The notes under the pieces: generated by a model
Databases searched by the model: none
Told to the model about the DNA's origin: nothing
What the model saw: the letters and a program-made list of their open reading frames with translations, nothing else
Position numbers and translations under genes: made by a program
IMG/VR virus record: IMGVR_UViG_3300028591_000203
Span: 1-64,000 of that record
Length of the DNA: 64,000 nucleotides
From: a virus
Reading direction: 5' to 3' (one strand)
Part shown: positions 2,956 to 36,466 of the stretch, in pieces
Layout of the letters: every line of letters begins with the position of its first letter
How positions within the stretch are numbered: the stretch's first letter is position 1

Positions 2956-3264
2956 ATGAATAACTATGAAAAAGCTTTTATGGAAGGATATTTAGATGCA
3001 ATTCAAAGTATTGATGTCCTTTATAATAATGATGCTACTGATTGTGAAGAATGTAGTGAAGATGATTTTGATATGTATTCAGATGATGATTTTGACGAAG
3101 AATTAGATGAAGGTTTTGTAAGTGCCATGAGAGCAGTAATAGATAAACCAAGAAAAACAAATACTAATACTGCTTTAAAGAAAAGAGCTAAAGCACAAGC
3201 TAAATTCGATAAAGCTTTTGAAAAAATGAATAAAGCAGCTGGAGTTAGATATTGTTGTTATTAA
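2956..3264 (+). CDS. small acidic protein with N-terminal MNNYEKAFMEGYLDA motif (EGY-family, putative packaged internal protein)
   Basis: RBS AAAGGAGTG. N-terminus resembles the T4 capsid targeting sequence MKTYQEFIAE. Paralogous motif found in 5 other ORFs. Confidence 0.5.
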   Translation: MNNYEKAFMEGYLDAIQSIDVLYNNDATDCEECSEDDFDMYSDDDFDEELDEGFVSAMRAVIDKPRKTNTNTALKKRAKAQAKFDKAFEKMNKAAGVRYCCY

Positions 3265-3269
3265 TATTA

Positions 3270-3306
3270 ATAACCCTAATGGATTTAATCCATTAGGGTT
3301 TATTTT
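3270..3306. terminator. intrinsic terminator between convergent genes
   Basis: aaccctaatggat/atccattagggtt hairpin followed by TATTTT. Confidence 0.65.
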
Positions 3307-3664
3307 AAAACTTTCCTGAAATACCAATATGTCTTTGTTGCATAGTTCTTCCATCGGAAGAATATCTAGATGTATCTTGAATTGAATATCCTTTAGTTTT
3401 TCCATTATTTAAAATTTCACCTTTATATATCTTAGTACCTTTCTTTTTTTCAAAAATAGTAGTAGCTGCACGGGCTTTAGCTAAATTTCTTTTACGTTGT
3501 AAATCGCTACGTTCAGTTGTTCCCCAACCATGATATTTATCTCTCATACCACCTTTAGGGCCATTCATACCAAGTTTTCTTTGTTTTTCTTTAGTTATTT
3601 GTGAAGTTTCTAAAAATTCAATAGCATCATAATAACCTTCCATAAAAATTTCTTCGTATGTCAT
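3305..3664 (-). CDS. basic protein with N-terminal MTYEEIFMEGYYDAIEFLE motif (EGY-family, putative packaged internal protein)
   Basis: RBS TAAGGAAGTGA precedes the ATG of MTYEEIF; the ORF track starts 3 codons earlier. N-terminal motif shared with 2956 and 31962. Confidence 0.5.
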   Translation of the reverse strand: MTYEEIFMEGYYDAIEFLETSQITKEKQRKLGMNGPKGGMRDKYHGWGTTERSDLQRKRNLAKARAATTIFEKKKGTKIYKGEILNNGKTKGYSIQDTSRYSSDGRTMQQRHIGISGKF

Positions 3665-4088: not shown

Positions 4089-6878
4089 ATGAAGATAAAA
4101 TATATTAAACTTGAAAATTTCTTAGGAATCTATGCAGGAATGAATAGAACTTCTGTAGAAATTGATTTCAAGAATAATAAGAATAAAATTATTATTCTTA
4201 ATGCAGCTAATGGTAAAGGAAAGACTACACTACTTTCTATGCTCCATCCATTAAGAGAAACATTTGATGATAGAAAAGATATTGTAATTCCTAATGAGCT
4301 TGGACATAAAATTGTTGATTTGACTCATGAAGGAAATGAATATCATATTGAACACTTTTATGGAAAAAAGAATAAATCATTCATTTCAAAGAATGGCAAA
4401 GAATTAAATGAAAATGGTAATATCAAATCATTCAATGAAATTGCAAAAGAAGAATTAGGAATTGATGGAGATTACTTTAAAATTGGTAGAATTGGATCAA
4501 ATGTATCTAATTTTATTGATCTTAAAGCAACTGAAAGAAAAAAGTATATTACTGAATTTATTCCAAGTATTGATGAGTATCTTGTTGCTTTTGATACTAT
4601 AAAAGAAAAATTTACTTCTTATAACTCTCAGATTAAGCTTATTAAAGGAACTATTGAAAAATATGCTGGATTAAAAGAGTTAGATGAAATTAAAGCATAT
4701 GTCAAGCAATTAACTAAGCAAAATGATGAGTTCCAAACAAAACTTGGAAAGGTTAAAGCTAAAATTGAGAGTTTTTCAGAAGATAAGAAAAAGCTTGAAG
4801 ATGAAATAGTTAACTATATTAATAATGAAACTGATTATCATATTGATAACTTTGAAATGCTTAATAGTATGACAATGTTAATTGATGATGATCTCGATGA
4901 AACAGAAAAGACATTAGGAGTATGGCAAGAAGAATATAATAATTTTCTTGAAAATAATAAAATTTTAGTAACAGAAAATATCCCAGAATATATGAAAAAC
5001 CTTCAAAATAAATTCAATATCAGAAAAGCTAAATTAGAAAATGAATTAGAAACACTTAAAGAATCTCTTAAAGAATGTACTTCTGATTTATTAGCTAATC
5101 AAAATGTAGTTGAAGTTTACAATCAAAAATTAAAGGATATCGATGGAGATTTAAGTGAAGAACAAATCGAAGAATTTAGAAAAGAACTAACAGAGACTAA
5201 TAAATATCTTGAAATTGCAAAAAAACAATTAGAAGATAATAAGAAAAAATTAACTTCCGAAGAATATGAAGAAACAGTTAATTTTTATAATACAAAATCT
5301 ATAGATCCAGTAAATATTCTTACTTATGCAAATACTTTTATTGATATGATAGATACACTTAAATCTCAGTATGATTTATCTACTTTAGAAGGCTATTATT
5401 CTTATATTGAAAACAGTGAAAATATTTTGGATAAGAAAGGAATTAATGCTGAAATAAGTAAATTAGAGCATGACATTCAAGAAAATAATGCTATACTAAA
5501 TAAAATTGAAGGAAGACTAAAACTTGTTAGTGAAACTCTTCCTAAGAGATCTACTAAGTGTACAGATGATACTTGTAGTTTTATTAAAAATGCTTTAGAT
5601 ATTCAGAAGTCAGATATTCCAGAACAAGATAAAAGACTAAAGAAACAAAAAGAATTACAAGAAAAATTAGATGAACTTACTGAATTAAGAGATACTATTT
5701 CAGTATATATTGAAATTGAAAAATTTCTGAATGATACTTATAACTACATTAAAAAGCATTTTCCTGATTATATTTATACAAAGTTATTTAACAGAAAACT
5801 ATTAATTACAAATAATACTGATTTAATAAAAGAATTTAAAATTGATATTCTTTATAATATCTTTACTAAAAAAGATGTCGTTGAAAAATGCGAAATTCAG
5901 AAAGAATCTTTTATGAATAAAATTAGTGTATTTGATATGTCTAAATCATTAATTGATGAATATAAAGAAAATCTTGATAAAGCTAATGATGCAGTTACTA
6001 CATTAAAAGAAAAGATTGAAACATGTAATGAAAAAATTGTAGAAACTGACTTAAAGATTAAAAGCCTTATTATTAGAATTTCACGTTGTGATGAATTCTT
6101 TGAAATTAATAAGAATCTTACTGAATGCACAGATATTTATCATAAACTTATTAAAACACAGACAGAGTTAAGCAAATTGCTTATTGAGTATAAGAACTTT
6201 AAAACTAAAAATAATATCGATGACTTAAAAGATACAGAAGATATGCTTGAAAGAAGTATTAAAGAACTTAAAACAAAACTTGATGAAAATAATACTGCAG
6301 TAAGAATTATTGAAGATAATATGAAGAAGCTTTCTGAAATTGAAAAGGTATATAAGGATGTAGTACTTATTAAGGATGCTTTAGATCCAAAGAAAGGTAT
6401 TCCAGTTGTATTTGCAAATGAATATCTTAAGAATATTGCTACTAAAGCTAATAATCTTCTTAAAATTGCTTATGGTGATCATTTTAAGATTAGATTTAAT
6501 ATTACATCAACTGATTTCCTAGTTGAAGTTTATAAAAGCGATGGAACATTCTTAAATGATATTAAGCTTGCATCTCAAGGAGAAACTTCTTTAACAAATG
6601 TATCTCTTAGCTTAGCAATGCTTGAATGTATGATTAAGAAATACAATATTGTATATCTTGATGAAGTAGACTGTACACTATCGACAGAAAATAGAAAACT
6701 TTTTATTGAAATGCTTGAAAATCAAATGGATTCATTAAATATCGAACAGTGTTTCGTAATTTCACATAATAATGAATTCTATGACAAAAACATTGATTTA
6801 ATTCTTCTTGAAGGTCATGATTGTGATCTAAATGATAAAGATTTCATGGCTGGAAAGAATGTAATTTTTAAATTATAA
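4089..6878 (+). CDS. sbcC: SbcC/Rad50-family recombination ATPase (T4 gp46-like)
   Basis: N-terminal Walker A NAANGKGKTTLLS. Long coiled-coil middle. C-terminal signature SQGETSLTNVSLSLAM and Walker B VYLDEVD. RBS AAGGAGG. Confidence 0.85.
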   Translation: MKIKYIKLENFLGIYAGMNRTSVEIDFKNNKNKIIILNAANGKGKTTLLSMLHPLRETFDDRKDIVIPNELGHKIVDLTHEGNEYHIEHFYGKKNKSFISKNGKELNENGNIKSFNEIAKEELGIDGDYFKIGRIGSNVSNFIDLKATERKKYITEFIPSIDEYLVAFDTIKEKFTSYNSQIKLIKGTIEKYAGLKELDEIKAYVKQLTKQNDEFQTKLGKVKAKIESFSEDKKKLEDEIVNYINNETDYHIDNFEMLNSMTMLIDDDLDETEKTLGVWQEEYNNFLENNKILVTENIPEYMKNLQNKFNIRKAKLENELETLKESLKECTSDLLANQNVVEVYNQKLKDIDGDLSEEQIEEFRKELTETNKYLEIAKKQLEDNKKKLTSEEYEETVNFYNTKSIDPVNILTYANTFIDMIDTLKSQYDLSTLEGYYSYIENSENILDKKGINAEISKLEHDIQENNAILNKIEGRLKLVSETLPKRSTKCTDDTCSFIKNALDIQKSDIPEQDKRLKKQKELQEKLDELTELRDTISVYIEIEKFLNDTYNYIKKHFPDYIYTKLFNRKLLITNNTDLIKEFKIDILYNIFTKKDVVEKCEIQKESFMNKISVFDMSKSLIDEYKENLDKANDAVTTLKEKIETCNEKIVETDLKIKSLIIRISRCDEFFEINKNLTECTDIYHKLIKTQTELSKLLIEYKNFKTKNNIDDLKDTEDMLERSIKELKTKLDENNTAVRIIEDNMKKLSEIEKVYKDVVLIKDALDPKKGIPVVFANEYLKNIATKANNLLKIAYGDHFKIRFNITSTDFLVEVYKSDGTFLNDIKLASQGETSLTNVSLSLAMLECMIKKYNIVYLDEVDCTLSTENRKLFIEMLENQMDSLNIEQCFVISHNNEFYDKNIDLILLEGHDCDLNDKDFMAGKNVIFKL

Positions 6879-6890
6879 GTATATATTATC

Positions 6891-6929
6891 TTAGTGCTAA
6901 TGATATTTCATTAGCACTAATTATTTTTA
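6891..6929 (+). terminator. intrinsic terminator
   Basis: ttagtgctaatga/tcattagcactaa hairpin followed by TTATTTTT. Confidence 0.6.
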
Positions 6930-7946: not shown

Positions 7947-8069
7947 ATGGCTCACGATAAGAATATACGAAAAGAAAAGAAAAAACCAAAAAAGTCTAAA
8001 AATAGTAAAGATCCTCCTATACCTATTGTAGACAAAAAAGAAAATCCTTGGTTAAGAAAATATTTTAAA
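7947..8069 (+). CDS. 41-aa highly basic peptide (MAHDKNIRKEKKKPKKSK...)
   Basis: Not in the ORF track because it is under 60 aa. AAGGAG RBS at the proper spacing. Bracketed by two terminators. Confidence 0.25.
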
Positions 8070-8080
8070 ATGGATTAAAT

Positions 8081-8121
8081 AAAAACCCCTTAAGACTTAG
8101 TCTTAAGGGGTATATTTTTTT
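8081..8121. terminator. bidirectional intrinsic terminator
   Basis: A5-ccccttaagact/agtcttaagggg followed by T-run. Confidence 0.8.
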
Positions 8122-8365
8122 ATTTATTTCTCCATACGATTCTACCAGCGGTTAGATCATATGGTGAAATCTCTACTTCTACAGAATCACCTTCAGTAAT
8201 TTGAATGGAATTCATTCTTAACTTACCAGAAATAGTACAAGTAATAATGCTTTCAGTATTATCAATTCGTACCTTAAATTTTGTACCAGGTAAAGTATCT
8301 ACTACTAATCCTGTTACACCAATATGCTCTTCTTTAGGTAATTGATTCTTGTTACATTTTTTCAT
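8120..8365 (-). CDS. infA: translation initiation factor IF-1
   Basis: EEHIGVTGLVVDTLPGTKFKVRIDNTESIITCTISGKLRMNSIQITEGDSVEVEISPYDLTAGRIVWR aligns across its length with E. coli IF1 [67 protein letters not shown]. Confidence 0.85.
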   Translation of the reverse strand: MKKCNKNQLPKEEHIGVTGLVVDTLPGTKFKVRIDNTESIITCTISGKLRMNSIQITEGDSVEVEISPYDLTAGRIVWRNK

Positions 8366-8458
8366 TAGTTATTCTCTCCTATGTAATTAAATTAAATGGC
8401 CTAGCGTGGTACGCATTATCAATTAATTGATACTAAGCGTGCTAGGCACTTTCACGAA

Positions 8459-8971
8459 TTAACCCATGAATGGATTTACATTATTTAAGTATTTGTTGTC
8501 AAAAGAATTTTTATCTAAATGACCAAAATTTCTTTCGTCTGTATTCCATGCATAATAATCTGGCTGATATCTTTCAGGATGTTCATTTACAGTATGATTA
8601 TCAGGCATGATAGGTCTTCCATAAAGATCTTCAGTACGCTTTATTGGATGGTCATCATCAATACATCTTAAATCATGTATTGCACATTCACATTGATCAA
8701 AGTATTCTTCCTTAGATAATCTATGATCTACAACTGGAGGATTAATAAGTATAGAATTTTCACCATTGGAGATAGCTTCAACAATCATATCGAATATTTG
8801 TGCTACTGCTGCATAGTTACATGATTCATAAATACAAATTCCTTCATTTCTAGTAGTACCGATTATCTTATACTTAGGAAGTTCTTCATTAATTTTAATA
8901 CCATATATATCATGGGCAAATCTAGCTTCACGATCATTTCTAATAACAGTAATCATAAAACTACCTCCCAC
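8459..8971 (-). CDS. hypothetical protein
   Basis: ORF track. Cys/His-containing. No family recognised. Confidence 0.4.
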   Translation of the reverse strand: MGGSFMITVIRNDREARFAHDIYGIKINEELPKYKIIGTTRNEGICIYESCNYAAVAQIFDMIVEAISNGENSILINPPVVDHRLSKEEYFDQCECAIHDLRCIDDDHPIKRTEDLYGRPIMPDNHTVNEHPERYQPDYYAWNTDERNFGHLDKNSFDNKYLNNVNPFMG

Positions 8972-8976
8972 TTAAA

Positions 8977-10782
8977 TTAATTTATAATATCATTATCAGT
9001 TAATACAATTCTGTCATTAGCAGAAGCAGTTTTTGGAGAAGTTAAATCAATAACTCTTATAAAATCATTTTCAACTAAAGACTTACTAGAATCATATGTG
9101 TCAGATACCCAAGTACAGAAACCATGAGCATAATTTGCATCTGGAATAGCTACAAAGAATCTATGCATGATAGGAGTTCTTCTCTCAGTATCTTCTTTAG
9201 CATATACCTTTAATTCATAAACATGATTTTCAATAGCTTGCCATGCAAGTTCATCATGTATAAAATCAGAAAGAACTCTTACAACCTGATTTGTAACAGA
9301 GAGATCTTCTACAGTAACGGTATACTCATTTGCAGCACAATTCTGTACATTTACAGAAACTACAAACTTCATATCGACATCAAGATCTCTATTATCAGAA
9401 TCTGGTTCGATTGGTTCTGGTTCATTATTAAAGTCTCTACCAGACTTAGCGAATCTCATATCATATCTACCATTAAGACGAACTGCATTAACAAAATATC
9501 TTACACCATTATCCTGAAGAACAAAAGTTGTCTGAGGGATAGACTTATCAAGTTCATACCAAACACCATCGTAAGTTTCTTCCTTATAATACCAGTTAAA
9601 GTTCTCAACTAACTTATAGAATTTATCAGGAATCATGAAGAAACTCCATTCACCTGCTACATCCATATTAGTCTTAAATACCATGCTATCAAGGATACAA
9701 TCAAGTACATTCTTCTTTACAACAATAGTATCTCTAGGATTCATATTAGAGAAAGTAGAATGGAAATTCTTAGAAATCATTGTTCTAAGAGCATTTGGTG
9801 AAAGCTCTTTGATATTTGATTGAACAGATTCACCCATTGCAAAGCCACCATTACCATAATAGATACAAATTCTATCTCTAAATGGAGGAGGACATGGTGG
9901 GAAGAAAGGTGGAACTGGAGGTTCTGGTGGTAATGGACGAGGACAAGGAGGAGGACAAGGAGGAGGACAAGGAGGACATGGATGATGATCAGGATGGTGG
10001 TGATGATGATGTGGTGGTTGATATGGAGGATCATAAGGTGGACATGGAGGTTCAGGTCTAAAATGATCCTTACGATGTGGAGGATATGGGAATGGATGAC
10101 AATCAGGAATTGGACAAGGAGGAGGACAATTATCCTTTCTAGGCTCAAATCTAATTACGTCACCATCATTCTTTGGAACCTTACTATAATCAATCTCAAT
10201 ATCTGTTTCATTATAAGGTGGATAAGGATTTGGAATTCTAAAAGGCTCTTCAGCATATCTAGGCTCTCTAGTTAAATTTTCAAATACATCATACCAAGGA
10301 TTTTTTCTTGGATCACCAATATATCTTGGATCAATATCACTATCTGGAACATGAGCATCAAACTTGTCATTCTTATAGAACCAAGGCTGATAATGATCAT
10401 AAGGGAATGGTGGGAATGGTCCAGGACAAGGAGGAGGAGGACATGGATGAGGCATTGGAGTATCAGGAATCTTTTCTAAGTCAATATATCTCCAACCTCT
10501 TCTACATAAATAAATAAAGTTATCGAGATAGTTTTGAGCTTTATATAAATCTTTGCTTCTATATGTAGCGAAAGACTGTGTTAGCTCAGAATTAGTATAT
10601 AATACTACATCATAGAACACTTTATCGATAAAACGAGGATCTCTACGAGCAGGTAAGTTATGAACTGCCTTTGGAGGGTTAGGATAAGTTGTTTTTGATA
10701 TCTTAACTCTAGCACCATATACGGTAAAGATACCGACATCATAACGATAACATGTAACACTAAATGGCATCATATATATCAA
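8977..10782 (-). CDS. Cys-Pro-repeat / polyhistidine-rich protein (PCPPPPCPGP, CPPPCPIPDCHP, HHHHHHPDHHPCPPCPPPCPPPCPRP) with globular N- and C-terminal domains
   Basis: Composition read directly from the translation. The central ~250 aa are over 40% Pro with regularly spaced Cys and an H6 run. DNA in this segment is GC-richer (ggaggacaaggagg repeats). Confidence 0.5.
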   Translation of the reverse strand: MIYMMPFSVTCYRYDVGIFTVYGARVKISKTTYPNPPKAVHNLPARRDPRFIDKVFYDVVLYTNSELTQSFATYRSKDLYKAQNYLDNFIYLCRRGWRYIDLEKIPDTPMPHPCPPPPCPGPFPPFPYDHYQPWFYKNDKFDAHVPDSDIDPRYIGDPRKNPWYDVFENLTREPRYAEEPFRIPNPYPPYNETDIEIDYSKVPKNDGDVIRFEPRKDNCPPPCPIPDCHPFPYPPHRKDHFRPEPPCPPYDPPYQPPHHHHHHPDHHPCPPCPPPCPPPCPRPLPPEPPVPPFFPPCPPPFRDRICIYYGNGGFAMGESVQSNIKELSPNALRTMISKNFHSTFSNMNPRDTIVVKKNVLDCILDSMVFKTNMDVAGEWSFFMIPDKFYKLVENFNWYYKEETYDGVWYELDKSIPQTTFVLQDNGVRYFVNAVRLNGRYDMRFAKSGRDFNNEPEPIEPDSDNRDLDVDMKFVVSVNVQNCAANEYTVTVEDLSVTNQVVRVLSDFIHDELAWQAIENHVYELKVYAKEDTERRTPIMHRFFVAIPDANYAHGFCTWVSDTYDSSKSLVENDFIRVIDLTSPKTASANDRIVLTDNDIIN

Positions 10783-26191: not shown

Positions 26192-26228
26192 TAGTCCAAC
26201 CCATTTATGGGTTGGACTAATTTTTTTA
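26192..26228. terminator. intrinsic terminator
   Basis: tagtccaaccc-attta-tgggttggacta followed by T8. Confidence 0.75.
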
Positions 26229-28475
26229 TTTATTTTTTAATCTTTCTTGTTTTATTCTATCTTTTATTCTAATTTTTTTAAGTTCCATATTATTGTCTAT
26301 AAGATAATCGTGTAAATTATCATTTGGTGTTAATTTACCAATCTTCAAATCATTAGATAATTGCTTTTTAGTGCTAGTTTGATACATATAATCTTTAGTC
26401 ATAAATGGAGTTAATAATCTTCCATCTACACCAATATCTTTTTTAGTTGGTATATAATTATCATCAACTATTATACAATTTTTCTTTAACATATCAATCG
26501 TCATTTGATATTTTTCTACTTTAGAATAATCAATATCATCTGTCTGTCTTATAGTAATACAATTAGGAGTATTAGAAGAGTGTCCTAGTCCTAATTCCAT
26601 ATCACTGTTTAACTGAATTGTATAAATATAAAATTCTAATAATTTTTTATTATATTTATGTAAATTATCTTTTAAATAATTATACACTGATTTAGTAATA
26701 ATCGGATTTTGAGAATTCTTACAACCTAAAATAGTTACATTTTCATCAATTTTCTTTAAGGTTTTTAATACTTCAAAACAACCCCATCCAATAGCTGATT
26801 TATATTTAGTCCAAGTATATAAAGAAAATCCTTCTTCTTGAAATATATTTCCAAAATCTAATCCAACGGATTTTAATTTTTTATAATATTCCTTAGAAGC
26901 ATGATAAACTTTTATAGGAAAATTAATAGATTCATTTAAATACTTCATTGGATCATTTTCTTTGTTTATTAATAAATAACATTTTCCATCATTAGTGCAA
27001 AATTCTAATTCTGCTGTTACTACTTTATCAGTCCAAATTTCATCATACATTTTAGAAATATCCTTAGTATAACCTTTATATAAAGTCCAATTATCTATTG
27101 GAATTACAAATTTTTTAATTTTTAAATCATTAAATTCTTTTTTAAGTAATTTTTTTAATTCATCATAATTATATTCATTTACAAAACCAATATAATAATC
27201 CATCGTTGTTCTAGTCCAGTTACAACCAAAACCGATTAAATCATCTTTATCAGTTAATTTACCCATACAATCCCAAAAATGACCAATTGTATTATATTGA
27301 TCTTCATTTTTTAAACTAAATTCTTTACCTATTCCAATAAATGTAATAAAATTATTTTTTGAATTGATAACTAAAGGTTTATTATTGTTTTGATATTTTC
27401 TAATAATATTTATAAATTCTTGAGTGGGATTTACAGGTTCTTTATAAGTTTTAATTAATTTTTTGTAATTTTCTCTATTAGTACAATTGAATAATTCAAG
27501 AGATTTTTTATCTGAAATTTCTTTTTGATTTGAATTCATTTCTTCCCAATTTCTCATAATTCTTTCAAGTTCTTCTTTGGACGGTTCTTTATGTATTAAT
27601 TCTATTCCAGTTTCAGCTCTCCATTTATGTACTGGATCTGATTTAAGTTTATTATACAGATTATTTCCATATTTTTGTTTAATTTCTTTTAAACTCATAG
27701 GTGGTTCATATTCTTCATTTAATTTTTTATTTAATTTAGGCATTTTTAAAGTTTTATTGAATCTATATCCATTCAGTTTCATCCATTCTTCAATATCATC
27801 ACCTGGTTGTAATGTTTTATCAATATTAATAGCTTGATACATTGCTTTTAAAAATTCTTTATCTTGTTGGATAAAATTTTTATCAAAAGCTAAGTTCATT
27901 ATTCCTCTATCTGGATAATTTTCTTCTTTATCCATTTCAATAAGTTCTTCTAATGATTTAATATCAAAATATTTATGAAAATTATTTTTAGTTAATGTAA
28001 ATTTATGAAGTTTAAAATCATTAATAGGTTTATCAACTGTATATTCATCTAAATGAGTAGTATTTCCTATACCAACTTCATTTATAGGTAATTTAAATTC
28101 ATATACATAAAATGGAATAGGTTTTGAAAGTAATTTATTAAAAACATAGTTAGAATTTTCTGTTGTAAAATGACCTTTAGATATATTACAATCAAATCCA
28201 ACTTTTTTTAATATTTTACCATCTTTTTCAATATTTCTTCTATATTCTCTTCTAAATGCTTGAAATGCGGCCCAATTTTTAGCTTTATTAAATTCTTTAA
28301 AACAGAATATAGACCAGGAAGGTTTTTCAAATCTATTTCCAAAATTTATACCAATAGGTTTTACAGTTTTAAATAAATCTGGAGAACCATGATATAAAGT
28401 AATTTCTTTATCAAAATAATTTTTAGATGCTATTCGTGTATATAAATGTTCATTAAAATATTCGCTCCAATTCAT
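26226..28475 (-). CDS. 749-aa protein with internally duplicated domain (LYHGSPDLF...GINFGNRFE // VYHASKEYY...GLDFGNIFQ)
   Basis: Two copies of a ~50-aa block read from the translation. The H-G-S/Y-Y context is reminiscent of H-Y-E ADP-ribosyltransferases, but this is unproven. Confidence 0.4.
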   Translation of the reverse strand: MNWSEYFNEHLYTRIASKNYFDKEITLYHGSPDLFKTVKPIGINFGNRFEKPSWSIFCFKEFNKAKNWAAFQAFRREYRRNIEKDGKILKKVGFDCNISKGHFTTENSNYVFNKLLSKPIPFYVYEFKLPINEVGIGNTTHLDEYTVDKPINDFKLHKFTLTKNNFHKYFDIKSLEELIEMDKEENYPDRGIMNLAFDKNFIQQDKEFLKAMYQAINIDKTLQPGDDIEEWMKLNGYRFNKTLKMPKLNKKLNEEYEPPMSLKEIKQKYGNNLYNKLKSDPVHKWRAETGIELIHKEPSKEELERIMRNWEEMNSNQKEISDKKSLELFNCTNRENYKKLIKTYKEPVNPTQEFINIIRKYQNNNKPLVINSKNNFITFIGIGKEFSLKNEDQYNTIGHFWDCMGKLTDKDDLIGFGCNWTRTTMDYYIGFVNEYNYDELKKLLKKEFNDLKIKKFVIPIDNWTLYKGYTKDISKMYDEIWTDKVVTAELEFCTNDGKCYLLINKENDPMKYLNESINFPIKVYHASKEYYKKLKSVGLDFGNIFQEEGFSLYTWTKYKSAIGWGCFEVLKTLKKIDENVTILGCKNSQNPIITKSVYNYLKDNLHKYNKKLLEFYIYTIQLNSDMELGLGHSSNTPNCITIRQTDDIDYSKVEKYQMTIDMLKKNCIIVDDNYIPTKKDIGVDGRLLTPFMTKDYMYQTSTKKQLSNDLKIGKLTPNDNLHDYLIDNNMELKKIRIKDRIKQERLKNK

Positions 28476-29592: not shown

Positions 29593-29692
29593 TGGTTTCG
29601 GCAAGACGAGTAAGACTCCGAGTTTATGTGTATAGCTTGGGAACAGAAAAACACAAGGTTTATATGTTGTACCAAAACAACTAAATTAACAA

Positions 29693-29728
29693 AGAAGGGT
29701 ATCAATATGATACCCTTCTTTTCTATAT
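29693..29728 (+). terminator. intrinsic terminator
   Basis: gaagggtatc-aatat-gatacccttc followed by TTTTCT. Confidence 0.6.
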
Positions 29729-29805
29729 ATTTTTTTTTTCGTTCTTTTCATATATTAAAGAAAACAAAGTGTTATATAAATATTCTTATGAAAGGAATGA
29801 TATTT

Positions 29806-30615
29806 ATGAATAACACTGAAGGATTTGTAGTGTGTGAAGAATTTACTGCTTCAACACCTTCTATATTAGCTGATGATAATAGATCTATTACATTCGAAGC
29901 TATTTTACAAGAAGCAGATGCTCCTAATAGAAATAAAAGAATCTATGGTAAAGATGTTTTATCTGAAGGACTTAATAATCCTACTGTAAGAGAAAAAATT
30001 GCTAATAAATGTTTCTATGGTGAAGCTGGACATCCTCTCTCTACAGATATTAAGAGACAAGCATATATTGATCAGACTAATATTTCACATATTGTATGCT
30101 CTACTTCATGGGAAGGAAATATATTAAAAGGTATTGTTGAAACAGCTCAAACTGCTACTGGCATGGACATGAGAGGTTTAATTAGACAAGGATCAAAAGT
30201 ATCTTTCTCTATGAGAGCATTAGGTAATGTTATTAAACAAGAAGGTCAGTATAATAGAGTATATGGTCCTTTAATGATTATTGCTTATGACTGGGTTACT
30301 ATCCCATCTCATGATAAAGCATATATGACTAAAACTCTTTCAGAGTCTGCTAGATTAGAGCAAAATGGAATTTTAACTGAAGGTCTTATCAACTTTAATA
30401 TGTCAGATTTAGCTGAATATGTAACTAGAGAAGATAAAAGAATCAATGCTATTTGTGAATCTCTTGGATTTGTAATTAATGAAGATTTTTCAAATGTAGA
30501 TGTTGATAGACGTAATAAGCTTCTTTCTATTAAGGAAGGTAATGAAACACTTAAACTATTCTTAAAGAATTCTGTTGTTAATGATATGGATAACTATTTC
30601 AAATATAGATTTTAA
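29806..30615 (+). CDS. putative prohead protease (T4 gp21-like)
   Basis: ATG follows AAAGGAATGATATTT; the ORF track frame starts at 29626. NRNKRIYGKDVL and GEAGHP blocks resemble prohead core protease. Adjacent to the internal-protein cluster. Confidence 0.4.
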   Translation: MNNTEGFVVCEEFTASTPSILADDNRSITFEAILQEADAPNRNKRIYGKDVLSEGLNNPTVREKIANKCFYGEAGHPLSTDIKRQAYIDQTNISHIVCSTSWEGNILKGIVETAQTATGMDMRGLIRQGSKVSFSMRALGNVIKQEGQYNRVYGPLMIIAYDWVTIPSHDKAYMTKTLSESARLEQNGILTEGLINFNMSDLAEYVTREDKRINAICESLGFVINEDFSNVDVDRRNKLLSIKEGNETLKLFLKNSVVNDMDNYFKYRF

Positions 30616-30624
30616 GAGAAAAAA

Positions 30625-30660
30625 AATCGCATATGGGATTTTCCCATATGCGATTATATT
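30625..30660 (-). terminator. intrinsic terminator (minus strand)
   Basis: aatcgcatatggga/tcccatatgcgatt hairpin, with an A8 run on the plus strand giving a T-run on the minus strand. Confidence 0.7.
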
Positions 30661-30662
30661 AA

Positions 30663-31286
30663 TTAAAGCTCGTCAATGTCATAACCATTGTCAAGGAATG
30701 CGGAATAGTAACCTTCGAGATAAGCCTCAGTAGTATCATCTTCATCATACTCATCGTACTCATCATAATCGTAATCCTCATCCTCATCAAAATAACCCAT
30801 CTCATCAAGAGCAGTAAAGTAACCCTCAAGATAGATCTTCTCAGCAGTAGAAGAACCAGATGCAGAACCAGATGCACCAGCACCTACGCTCTTAGAACCT
30901 CTAGCGCTCTTAGAATCCTTCTTAGTAGAGAAATCGAAAGAAGTAGATCTACGCTTACCAGAAGAAGCAGACTTAAGAGTTGCAAGAGCCTTCTTGTCAG
31001 CAGCAAGCTGAGCCTTAATAGCCTTAACCTTATCTGGATTTAACTGATTACCATTCTCATCAGTACCAGATGCAAGCATTCTTTCCTCTTTAGCAATCTT
31101 CTGCTCAAGCTTCTGAACAGCAGTAGTCTTCTTATAGTGGATAGAGAGTTCTGAAGAAGAACCCTTAGCAGCAGCCTTAGCTGCTCTCTTAGCATTCTTT
31201 GAAGCAGACTGAGAACTTTCAGATCTAGTGTTCTTTTCCTTTACAGGAGTTGCAGCCTCAGCTAAAATCATATCTAAATAATTCAT
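30663..31286 (-). CDS. EGY-family protein: basic N-terminal part, Ser/Gly/Ala stretch, C-terminal two YLEGYxxA motifs and DEYDEYDE acidic tail
   Basis: C-terminus EKIYLEGYFTALDEMGYFDEDEDYDYDEYDEYDEDDTTEAYLEGYYSAFLDNGYDIDEL. Confidence 0.45.
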   Translation of the reverse strand: MNYLDMILAEAATPVKEKNTRSESSQSASKNAKRAAKAAAKGSSSELSIHYKKTTAVQKLEQKIAKEERMLASGTDENGNQLNPDKVKAIKAQLAADKKALATLKSASSGKRRSTSFDFSTKKDSKSARGSKSVGAGASGSASGSSTAEKIYLEGYFTALDEMGYFDEDEDYDYDEYDEYDEDDTTEAYLEGYYSAFLDNGYDIDEL

Positions 31287-31348
31287 AATTCATACCTACT
31301 TTCTATAGTATTTTTAATATTAGTTTGTTTATTAACTTAATTTAGGAA

Positions 31349-31888
31349 TTAATAGTCATACTCATCGTATTCGTCATACTCATCATAATCATCGTAAGAC
31401 TCTTCAAGAGCTTCGATCTCACAAAGAGCTGCATAATAACCATCAGCATAAGACTCATTAAGTTTAGTAATAATTTCATTCTGTCCATTTATATTTCTAG
31501 CAGCCTTATCTCTGATTTTTCCAGCATTCTTAGTAACTAAAGCAGTACCACCAGCAGCAGCACCTACAGCACCTGCAGAAGCACCAGCAGCAATTGCAAG
31601 CTTCTTATACTTAGCAGCCTTAGCCTCATAAATCTTCTTAGCTCTAGGATCCTTTTCTTTAGCAGCAGCAGCAGCATACTGCTTTGCCTTCTTAGCTAAT
31701 ACAGCAGCAGAAGCACCACCAGCAACAGCAGCACCACCAGCAATACCAGAACCAACATATGCCTTCTTCTTATTAGCTCTAAGCTTATCCATAGCATCAA
31801 CTACTTTTTCGCTTCTCTTTCTACTAGCCATAGCTCTATTAAAAGCTTTTTGTTTTGCAGTCTTCTTTTCTTCTAACATATAATTCAT
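31349..31888 (-). CDS. EGY-family protein with Ala/Gly zipper and C-terminal YADGYYAAL plus DEYDEYDEYDY tail
   Basis: GSGIAGGAAVAGGASAAVLAKKAKQYAAAAA glycine/alanine zipper. C-terminus matches the family motif. Confidence 0.45.
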   Translation of the reverse strand: MNYMLEEKKTAKQKAFNRAMASRKRSEKVVDAMDKLRANKKKAYVGSGIAGGAAVAGGASAAVLAKKAKQYAAAAAKEKDPRAKKIYEAKAAKYKKLAIAAGASAGAVGAAAGGTALVTKNAGKIRDKAARNINGQNEIITKLNESYADGYYAALCEIEALEESYDDYDEYDEYDEYDY

Positions 31889-31961
31889 AAAAAAAACCTT
31901 CTTTCGTAAAATTTAATGTAATCCAAAAATGAATTTAATAAATTATTGTTAATGTAAGGTA

Positions 31962-32507
31962 TTAGTAATCATCAATATCGTGTCTCATATGTGCCTTATC
32001 TATAAAATCTCTTCTTCTTCTATATACTTCTGAGCCAATAGTACTACCCATAGTTGCCATACTACCTAAAGCACCTAATGCGGCACCACCTGCCATACCA
32101 CCTATAGAAGTTACACCAGTAGTCATTGCATTCAATGCTGCAGCATTTCCAATAGTACTACCTATACCAGAAACTAATGCTCCACCAGTAGAGACTCCAA
32201 ACTGTCCTAAATCTACTTTAGCTTTTAATTCATAATATTTTTTTCCTTCTTTAATAAATTCTTTTTCAGGTAATGGTTTATAATCTCTTTTAGCACAATA
32301 ACGCACATATTTAGGATATAGACGTTTAACTCCCATAAAAGAATCGCCTTTTTTAAGTTCTGAATTAAACCATCTAAATAAAGGAGGACCAAAAAAAGTA
32401 CCACCTAAACTATGATGATTTAAATATTTAGCCGTAGTTGATCCTTCTAAGAAAGCTAATGCATCACAATAACCTTCTATAAAAATTTGTTGAGCTAAAT
32501 AATCCAT
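31962..32507 (-). CDS. EGY-family protein: N-terminal MDYLAQQIFIEGYCDALAFLEG, C-terminal glycine-zipper region
   Basis: RBS GAGGAGGTAA. GVSTGGALVSGIGSTIGNAAALNAMTTGVTSIGGMAGGAALGALGSMATMGSTIG. Confidence 0.45.
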   Translation of the reverse strand: MDYLAQQIFIEGYCDALAFLEGSTTAKYLNHHSLGGTFFGPPLFRWFNSELKKGDSFMGVKRLYPKYVRYCAKRDYKPLPEKEFIKEGKKYYELKAKVDLGQFGVSTGGALVSGIGSTIGNAAALNAMTTGVTSIGGMAGGAALGALGSMATMGSTIGSEVYRRRRDFIDKAHMRHDIDDY

Positions 32508-32594
32508 TATTAGTTACCTCCTCTCAATTTTAATAATTATTAGTTTATCAACATTCACTTATATTTTAAATTAGTATTAGTGAGGTGATAAATA

Positions 32595-33542
32595 ATGTCT
32601 GAGTTATCTACAAAACAAAGGAATAACTTAAAAAATTCTGTTTTTGGAATACCTTCATTAAGAAAATATCCATTAAATGATAAAGAACATGTTTTAAAAG
32701 CAATTCAGTTTTTTCATCACTGTCCTTTAGAACATAAAAAAGAATTAGCTCATAATATTAATAAAGAAGCTAAAAAATATAATATTTCTATCTCTCAATC
32801 TTCTAATATATATGAATATTTAAATGAATCAGAACAAATTGAAATAGATTTAATGCAAGATGTTTTTGATTTAGAAGAAGATTTATATCTTGTTGAAGCA
32901 TTTGGAATGAATGAGCCAGAAGCTAAAGGATCTGTAGATACTGCAATTAATCTTTGGAAAAAAAGAAAGACTTTTGTAAAAACTCCAAAAGATAAACAAC
33001 GTATTCTTTCAGACTTAAGAGCTGAAAAAAATGCTATTGATACAATGCAGAGACAAGCTGATTTTAATGGTATTTTATTAAGAGCAAAAGCTACTGCTAA
33101 AAATATGAGTAAAAAAATAGCATCTGGTGATTATGATTCTATTAAAAAGATAAGAGGTAAAGCTGAAGTAAATGCTGGAAATAATAGAAGAGTTGGTAAA
33201 GTATTAGCAGTAGGTGCAGCAAGTGTTGCAGCAGGAGCAGCTATTGGTGGAGCAATGGGTAAAAGAAGTGCTAATAATAAAGGTAATGGTAGTTTTGGAA
33301 CTAAAGTTAAAGTAGGAACAGGTATTGCAGCAGGAGCATTAGCAGGTAATGCAGTTGCTATGGGAACTATGGGAGCTACTTTTGCAAAGCAAAGAGCAGA
33401 TATGCAAAAAGCTAAAGATCCTGATAAGCCATTAAGACAACATGCTGAACGTTATGCTAACTTTATTAGTAGTTTCCAATCAGAAATGATGGAATATCAA
33501 CCAGGCCAAGAAGAACAACAACAGGGAGAAGGTGAAGATTAA
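32595..33542 (+). CDS. glycine-zipper protein (VLAVGAASVAAGAAIGGAMG...VGTGIAAGALAGNAVAMGTMGATFA)
   Basis: ORF track. RBS GTGAGGTG. Same low-complexity Gly/Ala class as the neighbours. Confidence 0.4.
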   Translation: MSELSTKQRNNLKNSVFGIPSLRKYPLNDKEHVLKAIQFFHHCPLEHKKELAHNINKEAKKYNISISQSSNIYEYLNESEQIEIDLMQDVFDLEEDLYLVEAFGMNEPEAKGSVDTAINLWKKRKTFVKTPKDKQRILSDLRAEKNAIDTMQRQADFNGILLRAKATAKNMSKKIASGDYDSIKKIRGKAEVNAGNNRRVGKVLAVGAASVAAGAAIGGAMGKRSANNKGNGSFGTKVKVGTGIAAGALAGNAVAMGTMGATFAKQRADMQKAKDPDKPLRQHAERYANFISSFQSEMMEYQPGQEEQQQGEGED

Positions 33543-34837
33543 TGGGAAAGTTTTTACAAGAAGATTCTTTAGAGAAAAAAACGTTAAATAATTATTTTGA
33601 TGGTTATTTAGACACTACTGAAAGATATTCAAAATGGCTTCAAGGTTCTCCTACTTTTGTAACATATTATTCTATTAATCTTGAACAATCAACTCAAGAT
33701 CAAGGTCTTAATAATGTTATGGAAGTAGTTGGTGGAGAGTCTCCTGTTAAATATAATAAAATAGAAGATTTTCCAATTTATTTAGATGCTGATATGAATT
33801 TTAATACAAATCTAGAAGAAGATGCTGGATTTGACTCAGAATCAGAAGGAACTGCTATTATATTACCTGGAACGATTGTTCCACAAAATGATGATTTAAT
33901 AGTATTTGAAATATTAGAGCATAAACATGTTTATAGAATTTCTAATGTTGAATATTCTAATACTAGTATTAGAAAATTTTATAAAATAACTTTCTTTGTT
34001 TCACCTTTTGATGTTGAAACTCTAGATACTAGACAAGTTAAAGATGAATATAGTGTTATTTATAATAATATTGGAACTGAAGCTGATCCAGTTATACCTA
34101 AAAAAGAATTTACTTTTTTAGATGATATTGATAAGGTTTTAGATTATCTTAGTGAAAGATATATTCGTTTTTATTATGATAAAAAGATAAATGCTTTTAT
34201 CTATAATTATGATAAAATGAATATGATTATTCATGAATATTATAAAGATAATGGTATATATGATCCGAAGTTAGCTTTATTTATAAAAAGGCATAACTTA
34301 TTTATAAATAAAAAGACTTTTCTTAAAAATGTCTATGTTGAATGTCTTTTAAAAGATAGAGACTTAGATTATGAAAAATCAATTTATTCATTATTTGAAA
34401 CATTAGATACTGATGAATTTGAATATCCTTATTTTTATTTTATTCCTATTAATGAATCAGTATTTAGTTTAATGCAAGATAAATTTCATGAATTAGTTCA
34501 TAATAAGACAGATGTATATAAACGTTTTAAAATAATTCCAGATGGTAAAATAAGATCTGGACAATTTACATCTGTTGATTTAATTAAATATGTAACTGAT
34601 ACTAAATTAATAATAGATGATCTACCAATTAACGAACAAATTATGATTATTTATTTAAGATGCAGAAAGTATGAAGAACAAAATAATATAACGGATTATC
34701 TGGAAGATATAGTTAATTTATCTAAAAAAATTAAAATTGAAAAAGATTTCTATACTTACATTCAGATACCATGTATAATTTATATATTAAAAGAAATTAA
34801 AAATATAATTATACATAATACGAACTATATTAAATAA
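33542..34837 (+). CDS. hypothetical protein with N-terminal NNYFDGYLD motif (EGY-family variant)
   Basis: Start overlaps the previous stop (TAATG). Motif at residues 16-24. Confidence 0.4.
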   Translation: MGKFLQEDSLEKKTLNNYFDGYLDTTERYSKWLQGSPTFVTYYSINLEQSTQDQGLNNVMEVVGGESPVKYNKIEDFPIYLDADMNFNTNLEEDAGFDSESEGTAIILPGTIVPQNDDLIVFEILEHKHVYRISNVEYSNTSIRKFYKITFFVSPFDVETLDTRQVKDEYSVIYNNIGTEADPVIPKKEFTFLDDIDKVLDYLSERYIRFYYDKKINAFIYNYDKMNMIIHEYYKDNGIYDPKLALFIKRHNLFINKKTFLKNVYVECLLKDRDLDYEKSIYSLFETLDTDEFEYPYFYFIPINESVFSLMQDKFHELVHNKTDVYKRFKIIPDGKIRSGQFTSVDLIKYVTDTKLIIDDLPINEQIMIIYLRCRKYEEQNNITDYLEDIVNLSKKIKIEKDFYTYIQIPCIIYILKEIKNIIIHNTNYIK

Positions 34838-34854
34838 GAAAGGGTTGAATATCT

Positions 34855-35862
34855 ATGTTTAATTCATTAAGAAACGAGCTTGATAAGATTGCTTTAATGG
34901 AATCTGATGATTTAGAATTTTATAATGATCATACTGTAGATGGCGACGAAGGTCCTGCAGACGATGAGCTTTATGATGATCTTGAGGAAGGCGAAGAGGA
35001 AGAAGAGTTCGATGACCTCGATGATGGTGAAGCTATCAATGAAGCTATTGATATGATTATAAACGAAATGCTAATAAATGAAGCTTTAGAAGATGATGAT
35101 GATTATGACTATGATTATGATGATGATAGTGATGATTATCTTAATGAAGAAGAAGCTTATGGCGATGACGTTTTCGATGATGATTATGAAGATGATGATT
35201 TCGAAGACGATGATGACGAAGTCGATATGGACGAAGGTGTCGTTGGTGATGGTAAGACTGTAAAGGGCGAGCCAGATGACGATGAATATGATAAAGTTGA
35301 TATCGGTGGAGTAACTAATGCTATTCATGGTGATGTAGATCTTAAGGAAGATATCGAAGATGATGAGGAAGACGATCTTGATGAGCTTTTAGAATCTATT
35401 CTTTCTGAAGGTGATGAGACTAACGATCTCCGTGGTACATCTAGAGACATTTATGGTGATTCTGCCGATATGCCTTCTGGTGATGTTCCTCCTGCTCCTC
35501 AGTATTCTAAGGTTTCTGCAAGAAATAAGGTTGGCGCACCTATTGGTAATTATGGTGCTGATAATTATAAGGCTTTCGGTAAGGCTAAATTTAGCTCCGA
35601 TGTTATGGGATCTATGACTGTAGATGATGATGAGTATGATGAAGAAGGTAATGCATATGATCTTTTTGCATCTGCTGGAAACATCTATGATGATGATGAA
35701 AATGAAGAGTATTATGGCTTAAGAAATAAGGTTCAGACTAAGAATCTTTACGGAAGACATAATATTGACAACATCAACTATGCACAGCTTGGTGATAGAT
35801 TTGCTGGAACTAAGGATGCATTAGATGAGAGTGTAGAAGCTTTCCTCAGAAGTTTAGATTAA
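34855..35862 (+). CDS. poly-acidic protein (D/E over 40% in first 200 aa; DDDDYDYDYDDDSDDY)
   Basis: Composition read from the translation. GC-richer codons. Confidence 0.45.
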   Translation: MFNSLRNELDKIALMESDDLEFYNDHTVDGDEGPADDELYDDLEEGEEEEEFDDLDDGEAINEAIDMIINEMLINEALEDDDDYDYDYDDDSDDYLNEEEAYGDDVFDDDYEDDDFEDDDDEVDMDEGVVGDGKTVKGEPDDDEYDKVDIGGVTNAIHGDVDLKEDIEDDEEDDLDELLESILSEGDETNDLRGTSRDIYGDSADMPSGDVPPAPQYSKVSARNKVGAPIGNYGADNYKAFGKAKFSSDVMGSMTVDDDEYDEEGNAYDLFASAGNIYDDDENEEYYGLRNKVQTKNLYGRHNIDNINYAQLGDRFAGTKDALDESVEAFLRSLD

Positions 35863-35887: not shown

Positions 35888-36466
35888 ATGAAAGTAGTTA
35901 TTTATGATGAAGGATTTATTCCAGGTTTAGGAAGAGGTCCTTTTAAGACACCTATCGATATTTCAGAAGATAAATTCTATCTTTATAAACAAATGGGTTT
36001 AACTATTATTCGTGCAGATAAGAGCGTTCCTATCGTTGAAAGTGGAATTAGAAATAGAACTGTAACTAAAAAAGAAAATGTAAATATTCCAGAAGTTAAA
36101 TCTGTTGAAGTAGAGCCTACTGTAGTAGAAACTCCTAAGTTTACTAAAAAAGTAGAAGTTACTCCAGAAGTTGTTAAAGAAGAAGAGGTTTCTGAAGTTG
36201 AGACTGTAGATGAGATTACTCCTGAAGTAGTTGATGAACCAGAAGTAGAAGAAGTTTCTGAAGAAGAAGAGACTGTAGATGAGATTACTCCTGAAGTAGT
36301 TGATGAACCAGAAGTAGAAGAAGTTTCTGAAGAAGAAGAGACTGAAATTGATCTTAATGCACTAACTAAAAGACAGCTAGTTGAATTATTAACTGAAGCA
36401 GGTGTTGAATGCAACAGTAATATGAATAAAGCTACTCTTTTAGCATTAGCTGAAGAAAATCTATAA
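35888..36466 (+). CDS. Rho_N / HeH-like DNA-binding domain protein with 23-aa acidic tandem repeat
   Basis: C-terminus LNALTKRQLVELLTEAGVECNSNMNKATLLALAEENL matches the Rho N-terminal/SAP-like HeH fold motif. 69-bp direct repeat x2. Confidence 0.5.
   Translation: MKVVIYDEGFIPGLGRGPFKTPIDISEDKFYLYKQMGLTIIRADKSVPIVESGIRNRTVTKKENVNIPEVKSVEVEPTVVETPKFTKKVEVTPEVVKEEEVSEVETVDEITPEVVDEPEVEEVSEEEETVDEITPEVVDEPEVEEVSEEEETEIDLNALTKRQLVELLTEAGVECNSNMNKATLLALAEENL
36180..36335. repeat. 69-bp in-frame direct repeat x2
   Basis: gagactgtagatgagattactcctgaagtagttgatgaaccagaagtagaagaagtttctgaagaagaa duplicated. Confidence 0.8.

Follow-up and report, generated by a model that had tools for sequence, protein, structure and literature searches.

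The stretch analysed here, positions 1 to 64,000 of IMG/VR virus record IMGVR_UViG_3300028591_000203 (64,000 nt, hereafter the window), comes from a jumbo phage that is a distant relative of Bacillus phages AR9/PBS1, Staphylococcus S6-like phages and Listeria phage LPJP1. It is AT-rich (GC content about 0.24-0.39). Beside a gene for a T4 gp21-type prohead maturation protease lie three genes (B, C and D) whose products carry at one end a short peptide unit with a Glu-Gly-Tyr core, called here the EGY unit or tag, and two further carriers (I and J) are encoded at a second locus (Table 1). A comparison with 50,697 deposited phage genomes found no close relative of the phage; contigs of its lineage, with proteases 89-97% identical at the protein level, are present in IMG/VR, and two of them are 265 kb and 305 kb long.

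That the gene upstream of the cluster codes for a gp21-like prohead protease, as proposed in an earlier note on this DNA, is confirmed by Pfam PF03420 (Peptidase_S77, 44 bits vs a cut-off of 27; S80 stays under its threshold), by PHROG 207 "head maturation protease" (6.7e-26), by the T4 gp21 structure 5jbl in the PDB (2.8e-5) and by tblastn matches in 1879 phage records, including T4-like gp21 genes. The segments GEAGHPL and SFSMRALG align with T4 gp21 segments in 5jbl, from which we infer that their His and Ser are the catalytic positions. A longer protease open reading frame (ORF) from 29626 was rejected as an artefact; it would span both a terminator-like hairpin (29691-29721) and a late-promoter-like site (29763-29774).

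Table 1. Tagged loci, promoter-like sites and adjoining head module (a slash follows the Glu of a candidate cleavage site; aa, amino acids)
Feature	Position	Strand	Remarks
Late-promoter-like AACA-N6-TA	29763..29774	+	Before the protease gene
Prohead maturation protease, Peptidase_S77 (T4 gp21 type)	29806..30615	+	Pfam, PHROG, PDB, tblastn
Bidirectional terminator hairpin	30625..30655	.	Between protease and convergent D-C-B; left edge of swapped cassette
Protein B, 207 aa	30663..31286	-	N-terminus MNYLDMILAE/AA; basic body aa 11-149 (net +15); acidic C-terminal module (net -22) with two tag copies
B tag copy 2, YLEGYYSA, aa 189-196	30699..30722	-	
B tag copy 1, YLEGYFTA, aa 152-159	30810..30833	-	
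Late-promoter-like AACA-N6-TA	31318..31329	-	43 nt upstream of B
Protein C, 179 aa	31349..31888	-	Starts MNYMLE/E; basic body (net +23) with two Ala/Gly-rich segments; C-terminal tag
C tag, YADGYYAA, aa 147	31427-31450	-	LNE/S before; DEY tail SYDDYDEYDEYDEYDY after
Late-promoter-like AACA-N6-TA	31939..31950	-	62 nt upstream of C
Protein D, 181 aa	31962..32507	-	N-terminal tag FIEGYCDA (32460-32483), then AFLE/GS
Variant AACT-N6-TA	32534..32545	-	38 nt upstream of D
Protein E, 315 aa, no tag	32595..33542	+	N-terminal DUF6582 domain, acidic linker, basic C-terminal half with two Ala/Gly-rich segments
Protein F, 431 aa	33542..34837	+	Orthologue of AR9 virion structural protein gp164 (Pfam Phage_H_T_join_2)
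Protein G, 335 aa, poly-acidic (117 D+E)	34855..35862	+	Syntenic with acidic AR9 gp163
Variant AACT-N6-TA	2917-2928		Before I
Protein I, 102 aa, second locus	2956..3264	+	N-terminal tag FMEGYLDA (2977-3000), acidic stretch, basic C-terminal half
Protein J, 119 aa, second locus	3305..3664	-	N-terminal tag FMEGYYDA (3623-3646), then EFLE/TS, basic body (net +16)

A terminal peptide unit on otherwise dissimilar proteins

The pattern [FWY]x[ED]GYxxA has six copies, distributed over five genes (B, C, D, I and J), and no other in the six-frame translation of the window, against 0.03 copies expected from residue shuffles of the 81-gene set (maximum 1 in 500 shuffles) and 0.01 from nucleotide shuffles. 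The looser [FWYIL]x[ED]GYxx[AT] gives seven copies in six frames, all inside the ORFs named by the earlier note. Of the six ORFs said there to share the motif, five (30663, 31349, 31962, 2956 and 3305) do carry it; the match in the sixth, 33542 (protein F, YFDGYLDT), is due to chance, AR9 having no motif at this place and a relative reading YFDNYLDT, with the Gly not conserved. The other EGY tripeptides of the window (4089, 16447, 19089, 19680, 37454, 48292 and 56879) are without the extended motif and were likewise set aside as chance. The placement described earlier is correct: in three ORFs the motif is N-terminal, beginning at residues 7-9, and in two it is C-terminal, twice in B with a DEY-rich spacer and once in C, followed by a DEY tail.

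The claim that these genes are paralogues did not hold. All-against-all BLASTP among the five window proteins found only a 15-22-residue motif in common, and with 33542 a chance match the idea of one paralogous family of six ORFs was dropped. Unlike the five window proteins, C-type proteins do form tandem paralogues in relatives. Searches of Pfam, PHROG, NCBIfam and PDB with all carriers gave no match. Behind its tag, D consists of a strongly conserved domain of ~80 aa, a variable Gly/Ala-rich stretch and a conserved C-terminus; J, whose true ATG is at 3664, has a relative in the 305-kb contig with which it has the tag and the first ~20 body residues in common, and the second locus shows no synteny beyond the tag with the tagged loci of that contig.

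The unit is ~17 residues long, with the short consensus h-x-E-x-[FY]-h-E-G-Y-Y-D-A-L-x-E (h, hydrophobic). From 22 and then 54 distinct instances the full consensus is h-x-E-(A/S/I)-[FY]-[LMA]-[E>D,K,Q]-G-Y-Y-[D/A]-A-[L/I]-x-[E/D]-[I/L/M]-(E/G)-Y. Its hydrophobic or aromatic residues stand at positions 0, 1, 4, 5, 8 and 11/12, which is the spacing of an amphipathic helix, and Gly3 and Ala7 make up a small-xxx-small pair; as predicted from these residues, the shared element is a self-contained acidic amphipathic helix of ~17 residues. Since the search patterns demanded Gly and Ala, the invariance of these two is partly circular, which does not apply to the spread of synonymous codons: the Gly of the motif is encoded by GGT/GGA/GGC in 34/12/8 instances, the Ala by GCT/GCA/GCC in 35/17/2, and Leu by TTA and CTT. 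Selection acts on the peptide, because synonymous codons vary at conserved residues. In some copies Asp (throughout the C subfamily), Lys, Gln or Ile stands in place of the core Glu, with G-Y-x-D-A retained; this Glu, after which cleavage had been placed in the earlier note (...(F/I)(M/I)E), is therefore not the conserved essential feature, and cleavage there is not supported.

Candidate cleavage sites and a second terminal peptide

The site consensus of T4 gp21 is L/I-x-E. T4 gp21 and the proteases of giant phages cleave after Glu at a three-residue motif (PMC9026906). In the capsid-targeting sequence (CTS) of T4, MKTYQEFIAE (PMC8442874), Tyr4 and Phe7 serve targeting and Ile8 and Glu10 serve processing, and a Glu10-to-Asp change stops cleavage with targeting kept (PMC9026906). 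The likeness to this peptide seen earlier stands, as tagged N-termini such as MTYEEIFME keep the Tyr-Phe-Glu order. The likelier cleavage sites, judged from the sequences, are at the edges of the helix. A [LIMFV]-x-E triplet directly follows the last helix in 21 of 24 N-terminal modules, vs 9% of background windows, and h-x-E directly precedes the first helix in 10 of 14 C-terminal modules, vs 4% of background. In the D family the boundary between tag and invariant domain reads [FILM]-[LN]-E/[GAS] in all six members. This pattern of Glu sites is consistent with removal of the tag.

Similar candidate sites are found in the head proteins themselves. The major capsid protein of the lineage (L021 7001-8770) has a conserved candidate site ESILTE/SLEGVQPYASLTMP (ESILTE/SLEG..PYASLTMP), which aligns with AILQE/S in AR9, NIME/S in LPJP1 and ILME/S in SA1. 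Just past its catalytic domain the protease has a conserved [IV][LI]xE/GLINF, of which the window copy, GILTE/GLINF, is a candidate self-cleavage site; C-terminal autoprocessing has been described for the proteases of T4, phiKZ and SPN3US.

A second terminal peptide is present in B, C and several relatives, which start with MNYLDM(I/V)LAE/AA, MNYMLE/A or MNYRDLILE/S. The N-terminus of B, MNYLDMILAE, has ten residues and ends in I-L-A-E, to be compared with the T4 CTS given above. B-like N-termini also occur on scaffold-like acidic, capsid-adjacent proteins of other AR9-like contigs (MNYFETLLLEAD and MSFFDTILFES) and in LPJP1 gene 136, beside the protease (FLDVILEDAD). T4 Alt, which has a propeptide but no shared CTS at its C-terminus (PMC9026906), is trimmed at both ends, and by analogy the C-type proteins would be trimmed at both ends. 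In AR9 the protease gene is flanked by two genes with unrelated products, gp114 (L013, the AR9 locus, 6435-6893, minus strand; annotated as a virion protein) and gp112 (8207-8404, plus strand), which have an N-terminal ESLLL[VI]E in common. This peptide may be an AR9-specific counterpart of a shared targeting or cleavage peptide.

Distribution of the unit in relatives

Relatives were searched with a degenerate DNA pattern for E-x-[FY]-h-E-G-Y-Y-x-A-h, carrying out the search of related phages for the motif family that the earlier note had proposed, and at least 45 carriers were obtained from IMG/VR and metagenome relatives. In IMG/VR 16 stretches match, nearly all in contigs of the window lineage, and the 305-kb contig has tagged genes at five dispersed loci. 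In metagenomes 70 stretches match, of which the AT-rich ones belong to the window lineage. The high-GC matches were rejected as unrelated globular families, one methyltransferase-like (...EDFVEGYYDAIVALHACD) and one Cys-rich (...LEREAFLEGYYKAFG). In these cellular families (L064, L065, L079, L096 etc.; L066, L093, L125 etc.) the octapeptide is inside globular domains. Because two high-GC cellular families contain the same octapeptide, the motif alone is not diagnostic outside the window phage lineage. A match in a tail-assembly chaperone (L053/L072) was judged to be chance.

The complete ORFs pooled from the AT-rich loci give 45 distinct carriers with 59 copies: 24 copies start in the first 15 residues, 14 are in the last 25 residues, and the remaining 21 are mostly second copies in tandem terminal modules with Asp/Glu/Tyr spacers between them. 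The bodies behind the tags are diverse and include small Lys-rich proteins, proteins with Ala/Gly segments, the conserved D domain and one RibD_C domain. The last is encoded at L049 7808-8560 (minus strand), where an N-terminal tag and EILNE/QQ are followed from residue 32 by this reductase-fold domain (Pfam 1.5e-17); no homologue of the RibD_C cargo was found in the window. One body occurs in two settings, with an N-terminal tag in L047 (179 aa) and behind a 110-residue extension in L046 (272 aa). The earlier note would have given up its reading had the motif proved to be part of a conserved folded domain; with the motif found on unrelated bodies, the RibD_C protein included, these sequences support a portable terminal tag instead.

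Promoter-like sites, transcription units and cassette exchange

The late-promoter motif of AR9, AACA-N6-T(A/G), is located about 40-60 nt upstream of the start codon (PMC5312081). About a dozen window genes, among them B, C, E and the protease, have the late motif 36-62 nt ahead of them. By counts of sequence motifs, the relaxed form AAC[AT]-N6-TA stands 38-62 nt upstream of 29 of 42 family genes vs 63 of 223 others, while the AR9 early core TATATTAT precedes none of the 42 vs 43 of the 223; on these counts the tagged genes look late. The promoter-like site, the ribosome-binding site GAAAGAAGG and the start codon form a conserved package. The AACT-N6-TA variant is found before D, I and 14 genes of relatives (16 of 42 family genes vs 23 of 223 others) and is characteristic of genes whose product is tagged at the N-terminus; it may represent a promoter class of its own or simply be carried along with the tag in one recombination unit.

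Late-like sites are spread over the whole window (e.g. 10823, 12091, 13425, 21987, 22448, 39593, 42127 and 52719), as are early-like (A)TATATTAT sites (e.g. 2422, 3717, 6881, 14822, 18618, 24612, 40056, 43679 and 63194). Both kinds are intergenic and at a fixed distance to start codons, although the phage is only ~35-45% identical to AR9 in protein. The recurrence of these AR9 elements suggests that the two-RNA-polymerase transcription programme is conserved. In a scan for sigma-70 promoters the sites were no more numerous than in shuffled sequence.

Hairpin terminators mark three units, namely the protease gene by itself, a minus-strand unit D-C-B and a plus-strand unit E-F-G-H, with the tagged cluster divergent from the E-F-G-H head module. 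When the window was compared with L003, a contig whose protease is 97% identical in protein, identity was 92.6% in the part ending at 30624 and 85.8% in the part starting at 32457. The segment between them (30625-32456) has no L003 counterpart except for a 55-nt inverted patch over the first codons of B, and L003 has two different tagged genes in its place. The right edge of this cassette is inside the first 17 codons of D, i.e. in the tag codons, where ~27 nt are conserved between different genes. The tagged cluster and E-F-G are inverted relative to the protease in the 265-kb contig, and extra genes are inserted in the 305-kb contig; the cluster is thus linked no less closely to the E-F-G-H head module than to the protease.

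Charge and low-complexity segments

The carriers are split in charge. The bodies of B, C (residues 7-144) and J (from residue 20) have, besides the net charges of Table 1, a pI above 10, vs net charges of the tag modules of -22 in B (150-207), -15 in C (145-179) and -19 in I (1-53). Microsatellite-like DNA with repeats of period 3, 9, 12, 18 and 21 underlies both the DEY tails and the Ala/Gly stretches, and the repeat copy number differs among orthologues. Long Gly/Ala stretches had been reported in three family members and the 32595 protein (E); they are present in C, D and E, and B has a 12-residue patch only. Their description as glycine zippers is not supported: lag-4 GxxxG or small-xxx-small spacing does not exceed what composition predicts (z <= 1.8), the register is not conserved in orthologues, the D family included, and the Pfam glycine-zipper domain gave no match. 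Kyte-Doolittle means of 1.0-1.8 are marginal for membrane helices. Naming these stretches glycine zippers or membrane helices is not justified, although they may be either, and a membrane-pore or anti-defence role is speculation based on composition.

Several tagged proteins end in a second recurrent module, in which K-x-Y-K-x-x-(G)GKLS-x-x-E-W/F...GKP comes after an Ala/Gly-rich segment (L003 1525-2283, L016 3936-5991 and 6618-7211, L046/L047, L021 3553-5472). It is also repeated in a zincin-protease-like protein upstream of the capsid gene.

Interpretation and alternative explanations

We lean towards reading the EGY unit as a capsid-targeting propeptide that is removed by the S77 protease, much as in the CTS and internal-protein (IP) system of T4, and usable at either terminus of a protein. 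Late in infection the helix would dock its carrier on the assembling prohead core or inner shell, presumably acting from the N- or the C-terminus, both of which are occupied in the sequences. The protease (29806-30615) would then cleave after Glu at the hydrophobic-x-Glu sites on the helix edges, the acidic tag and spacer peptides would exit the head, and the Lys-rich basic bodies would remain with the DNA and would probably pass into the next host. The DNA that encodes the tag, together with its promoter and ribosome-binding site, would double as a recombination junction, of which one example in the motif codons is observed; because it serves in this way, the cargo set would be quickly reshuffled among related phages.

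Several observations weigh against a propeptide of this kind. The h-x-E sites are intrinsic to the helix at either end, so that their position relative to the body is weaker evidence than it seems at first; the counted sequences are also interrelated. Sequence and profile searches detected no homology to T4 IPs, phiKZ inner-body proteins or AR9 gp114-like virion proteins. In SPN3US all substrate cleavages outside the protease itself are N-terminal, and C-terminal propeptides are rare in the giant phages studied (PMC10052503). The capsid gene is not adjacent to the protease, being tens of kb away in the 265-kb and 305-kb contigs, and the second locus (2956-3664) sits among non-structural genes with the putative AACT promoter variant only. 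The hydrophobic Ala/Gly segments of several members could mean a membrane location instead. The C and D families each number 7 proteins among 5.8 billion, none from a cultured phage, and AlphaFold models of D and C with 6-7 homologues (mean predicted confidence, pLDDT, 41 and 52) were all helical and unusable.

A wider version of the propeptide reading, which we put forward tentatively and with more doubt than conviction, would make the unit a bidirectional, stackable cargo-loading tag of the jumbo-phage capsid, with its own protease-release sites on both edges and a second role as a recombination joint. The lineage would then package, and presumably inject, a dozen or more reshuffled proteins per genome, enzyme-like cargo among them, and the Asp/Glu/Tyr spacers would be removable counter-charges for the basic bodies until the DNA enters.

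The tagged proteins could instead be prohead core or scaffold components, which are targeted and cleaved and then degraded and expelled, like T4 gp22, gp67 and gp68. Acidic Tyr-rich spacers with multiple Glu sites do resemble scaffold-type propeptides with redundant cleavage sites (PMC9026906), the N-terminus of B matches scaffold-like N-termini of other AR9-like phages, and low-complexity, slippage-prone bodies suggest a filler or structural role. We consider this unlikely. Essential scaffolds are normally conserved, whereas near-identical phages exchange the tagged genes, which run to a dozen or more in a genome; the window also has a separate scaffold-like gene (62091-62654), and the invariant ~80-aa domain of the D family and the enzyme-like cargo point to functional cargo. 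Slightly less credible still is a docking or oligomerisation helix of late membrane-associated proteins (for lysis, superinfection exclusion or a DNA-entry conduit), with transmembrane Ala/Gly segments and no part for the capsid. It could draw on the Lys/Arg-flanked Ala/Gly segments, whose Kyte-Doolittle means reach 1.8 in E, C and several relatives, on the predicted late expression, which fits lysis genes too, and on the G-x-x-x-A spacing of the tag, a classic helix-packing pattern; but hydrophobic segments are absent from B, I, J and the RibD_C carrier, no adjacent lysis gene was found, the zipper register is neither significant nor conserved, the tag is strongly acidic and soluble, and the setting is a head module by a prohead protease.

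The charge split, with bodies of +15 to +23 against tag modules of -15 to -22, and the DNA-mimic-like Asp/Glu/Tyr repeats of the tails would also suit an autoinhibitory or chaperone-like pro-region of basic DNA-binding proteins whose cytoplasmic target is phage or host DNA and which are not encapsidated. This is improbable in our view, since it leaves unexplained the conserved helix (Gly and Ala in all collected instances, aromatic positions kept), the terminal tag on non-basic, enzyme-like cargo and the linkage to the protease and head genes. Least probable by far is a motif kept only as a DNA-level recombination linker encoding a functionless peptide, like the shuffling motifs of T4-like hyperplastic regions (PMC4122927): the cassette junction in motif codons and the ~27 nt conserved between different genes are what it would predict, but synonymous codons are diverse at conserved residues, which means that the peptide is selected, copies are also C-terminal and in tandem within one protein, and the motif is always in frame.

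Comparison with known packaging systems

Among known systems, the capsid-targeting propeptide proposed here is most readily compared with the T4 CTS, borne by IPI, IPII, IPIII and Alt and removed by gp21. T-even internal proteins are highly basic and highly diverse, with only the CTS in common (PMC3012670). In T4 as in the window, a short terminal peptide is found on otherwise unrelated, mostly basic, fast-evolving proteins, a gp21-type S77 protease is encoded, and the loci are plastic, the cassette swap at the tagged locus resembling the T4 IP loci. T4 and the window resemble each other in the N-terminal Tyr...Phe-h-Glu pattern and in the hydrophobic-x-Glu sites, and the natural fusion of a tag to RibD_C in a relative parallels experimental T4 CTS fusions. 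The window unit differs in being longer (~17 aa), in its G-Y-Y-D-A core, and in its placement, which is N-terminal in only 24 of 59 copies and at the extreme C-terminus in 14, C-termini accounting for up to about one copy in three, with tandem copies joined by Asp/Glu/Tyr spacers; unlike those of T4, several window-type carriers have Ala/Gly-rich hydrophobic segments, and their packaging and cleavage are predicted from sequence. The tagged proteins are not members of the T4 IP family, as they have no detectable homology to it and do not keep to the N-terminus.

Jumbo phages phiKZ, 201phi2-1 and SPN3US likewise have many head-internal proteins, with inner-body and ejection propeptides cleaved after Glu at a three-residue motif, redundant sites, diverged paralogues with conserved N-termini and some ejection proteins with transmembrane helices (PMC5694885, PMC10052503). 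These propeptides differ in that they are mostly long (>100 aa), N-terminal only and cleaved at S/A/G-x-E, and the proteases are S80 (gp175/gp245) vs S77 in the window; the PHROG search gave no match annotated as phiKZ gp93/95/97-type inner-body proteins, nor did Pfam provide a link. In phage P1 an N-terminal peptide of <=30 residues of DarB suffices to load cargo into a myovirus head (PMC9024508). The P1 Dar proteins are without a consensus signal, whereas the window unit is highly conserved over many carriers. The cargo-loading peptides of encapsulins are also short, terminal and usable on varied cargo, and lead into an HK97-fold shell; their sequence is different, no protease removes them and they do not serve a DNA-packaging virus, which makes this an analogy only. 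Within the AR9/PBS1 group, the protease-adjacent small head-module proteins AR9 gp114, LPJP1 136-138 and SA1 53 have N-terminal hydrophobic-x-Glu peptides, a hydrophobic segment and Lys-rich helices; none has the EGY unit, and homology of the C-type family to them was rejected at an hhalign probability of 0.3%.

A CTS acting with a prohead protease on diverse internal proteins (T4) and signal-directed loading (P1 DarB) are thus already known. If the propeptide reading is true, three features would be new: the unit as such, its employment at both kinds of terminus, also as tandem copies with acidic Tyr-rich spacers, and its presence on the products of a dozen or more genes per genome. CTSs have been experimentally defined only in T4 and, for one protein, in P1. 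Giant phages package dozens of internal or ejected proteins, and the tag would then be a directly testable cargo-selection rule for the AR9-like lineage, would list the lineage's candidate injected proteins by sequence alone, and might provide a compact means to load foreign proteins into large capsids. Should it bind a partner other than the prohead, it would still be an unusually clear portable peptide module shuffled among phage genes.

Neighbouring genes and other observations

Protein E is encoded divergently from D, with a late-like site at 32550-32561, and its acidic linker has a conserved h-x-E/AFGMNE; the genomic context of stand-alone DUF6582 homologues was uninformative. F is 33-39% identical to AR9 gp164. 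The 335-aa poly-acidic protein that the earlier note placed downstream is G. The gene after G (35888-36466) is syntenic with AR9 gp162 and has at 36200-36344, in its acidic middle, a perfect 69-bp tandem duplication (2.1 copies, 100% match); several PHROGs match the C-terminal ~45 residues of this orthologue via a short helix-hairpin-like DNA-binding motif.

In most relatives (L004, L005, L007 and L016) the protease gene is interrupted behind a conserved ...YDWV by an insertion of 0.4-1.6 kb, which in L005 (10001-12353) holds a 375-aa Cys-rich endonuclease-like ORF. The AR9 protease gene, gp113 (L013 7001-8152), is annotated as two pieces joined, and the window copy is uninterrupted.

A search for the capsid gene found none in the window, and no tagged genes were found at the capsid loci of relatives. 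At the far end of the window the scaffold-like protein (62091-62654, minus strand) is followed by two ~280-aa proteins similar to each other (61218-62066 and 60311-61147, both on the minus strand). It has an acidic N-half and a helical C-half, and weakly matches capsid-adjacent SA1 and AR9 gp115 proteins. An Rfam search of the window gave no match. A 749-aa protein encoded at 26226-28475 (minus strand) has no family match, and its two ends resemble a duplicated domain (LYHGSPDLFKTVKPIGINFGN... / VYHASKEYYKKLKSVGLDFGN...); near the protease of L005, at 8062-8988, a single-domain protein similar to these ends is encoded.

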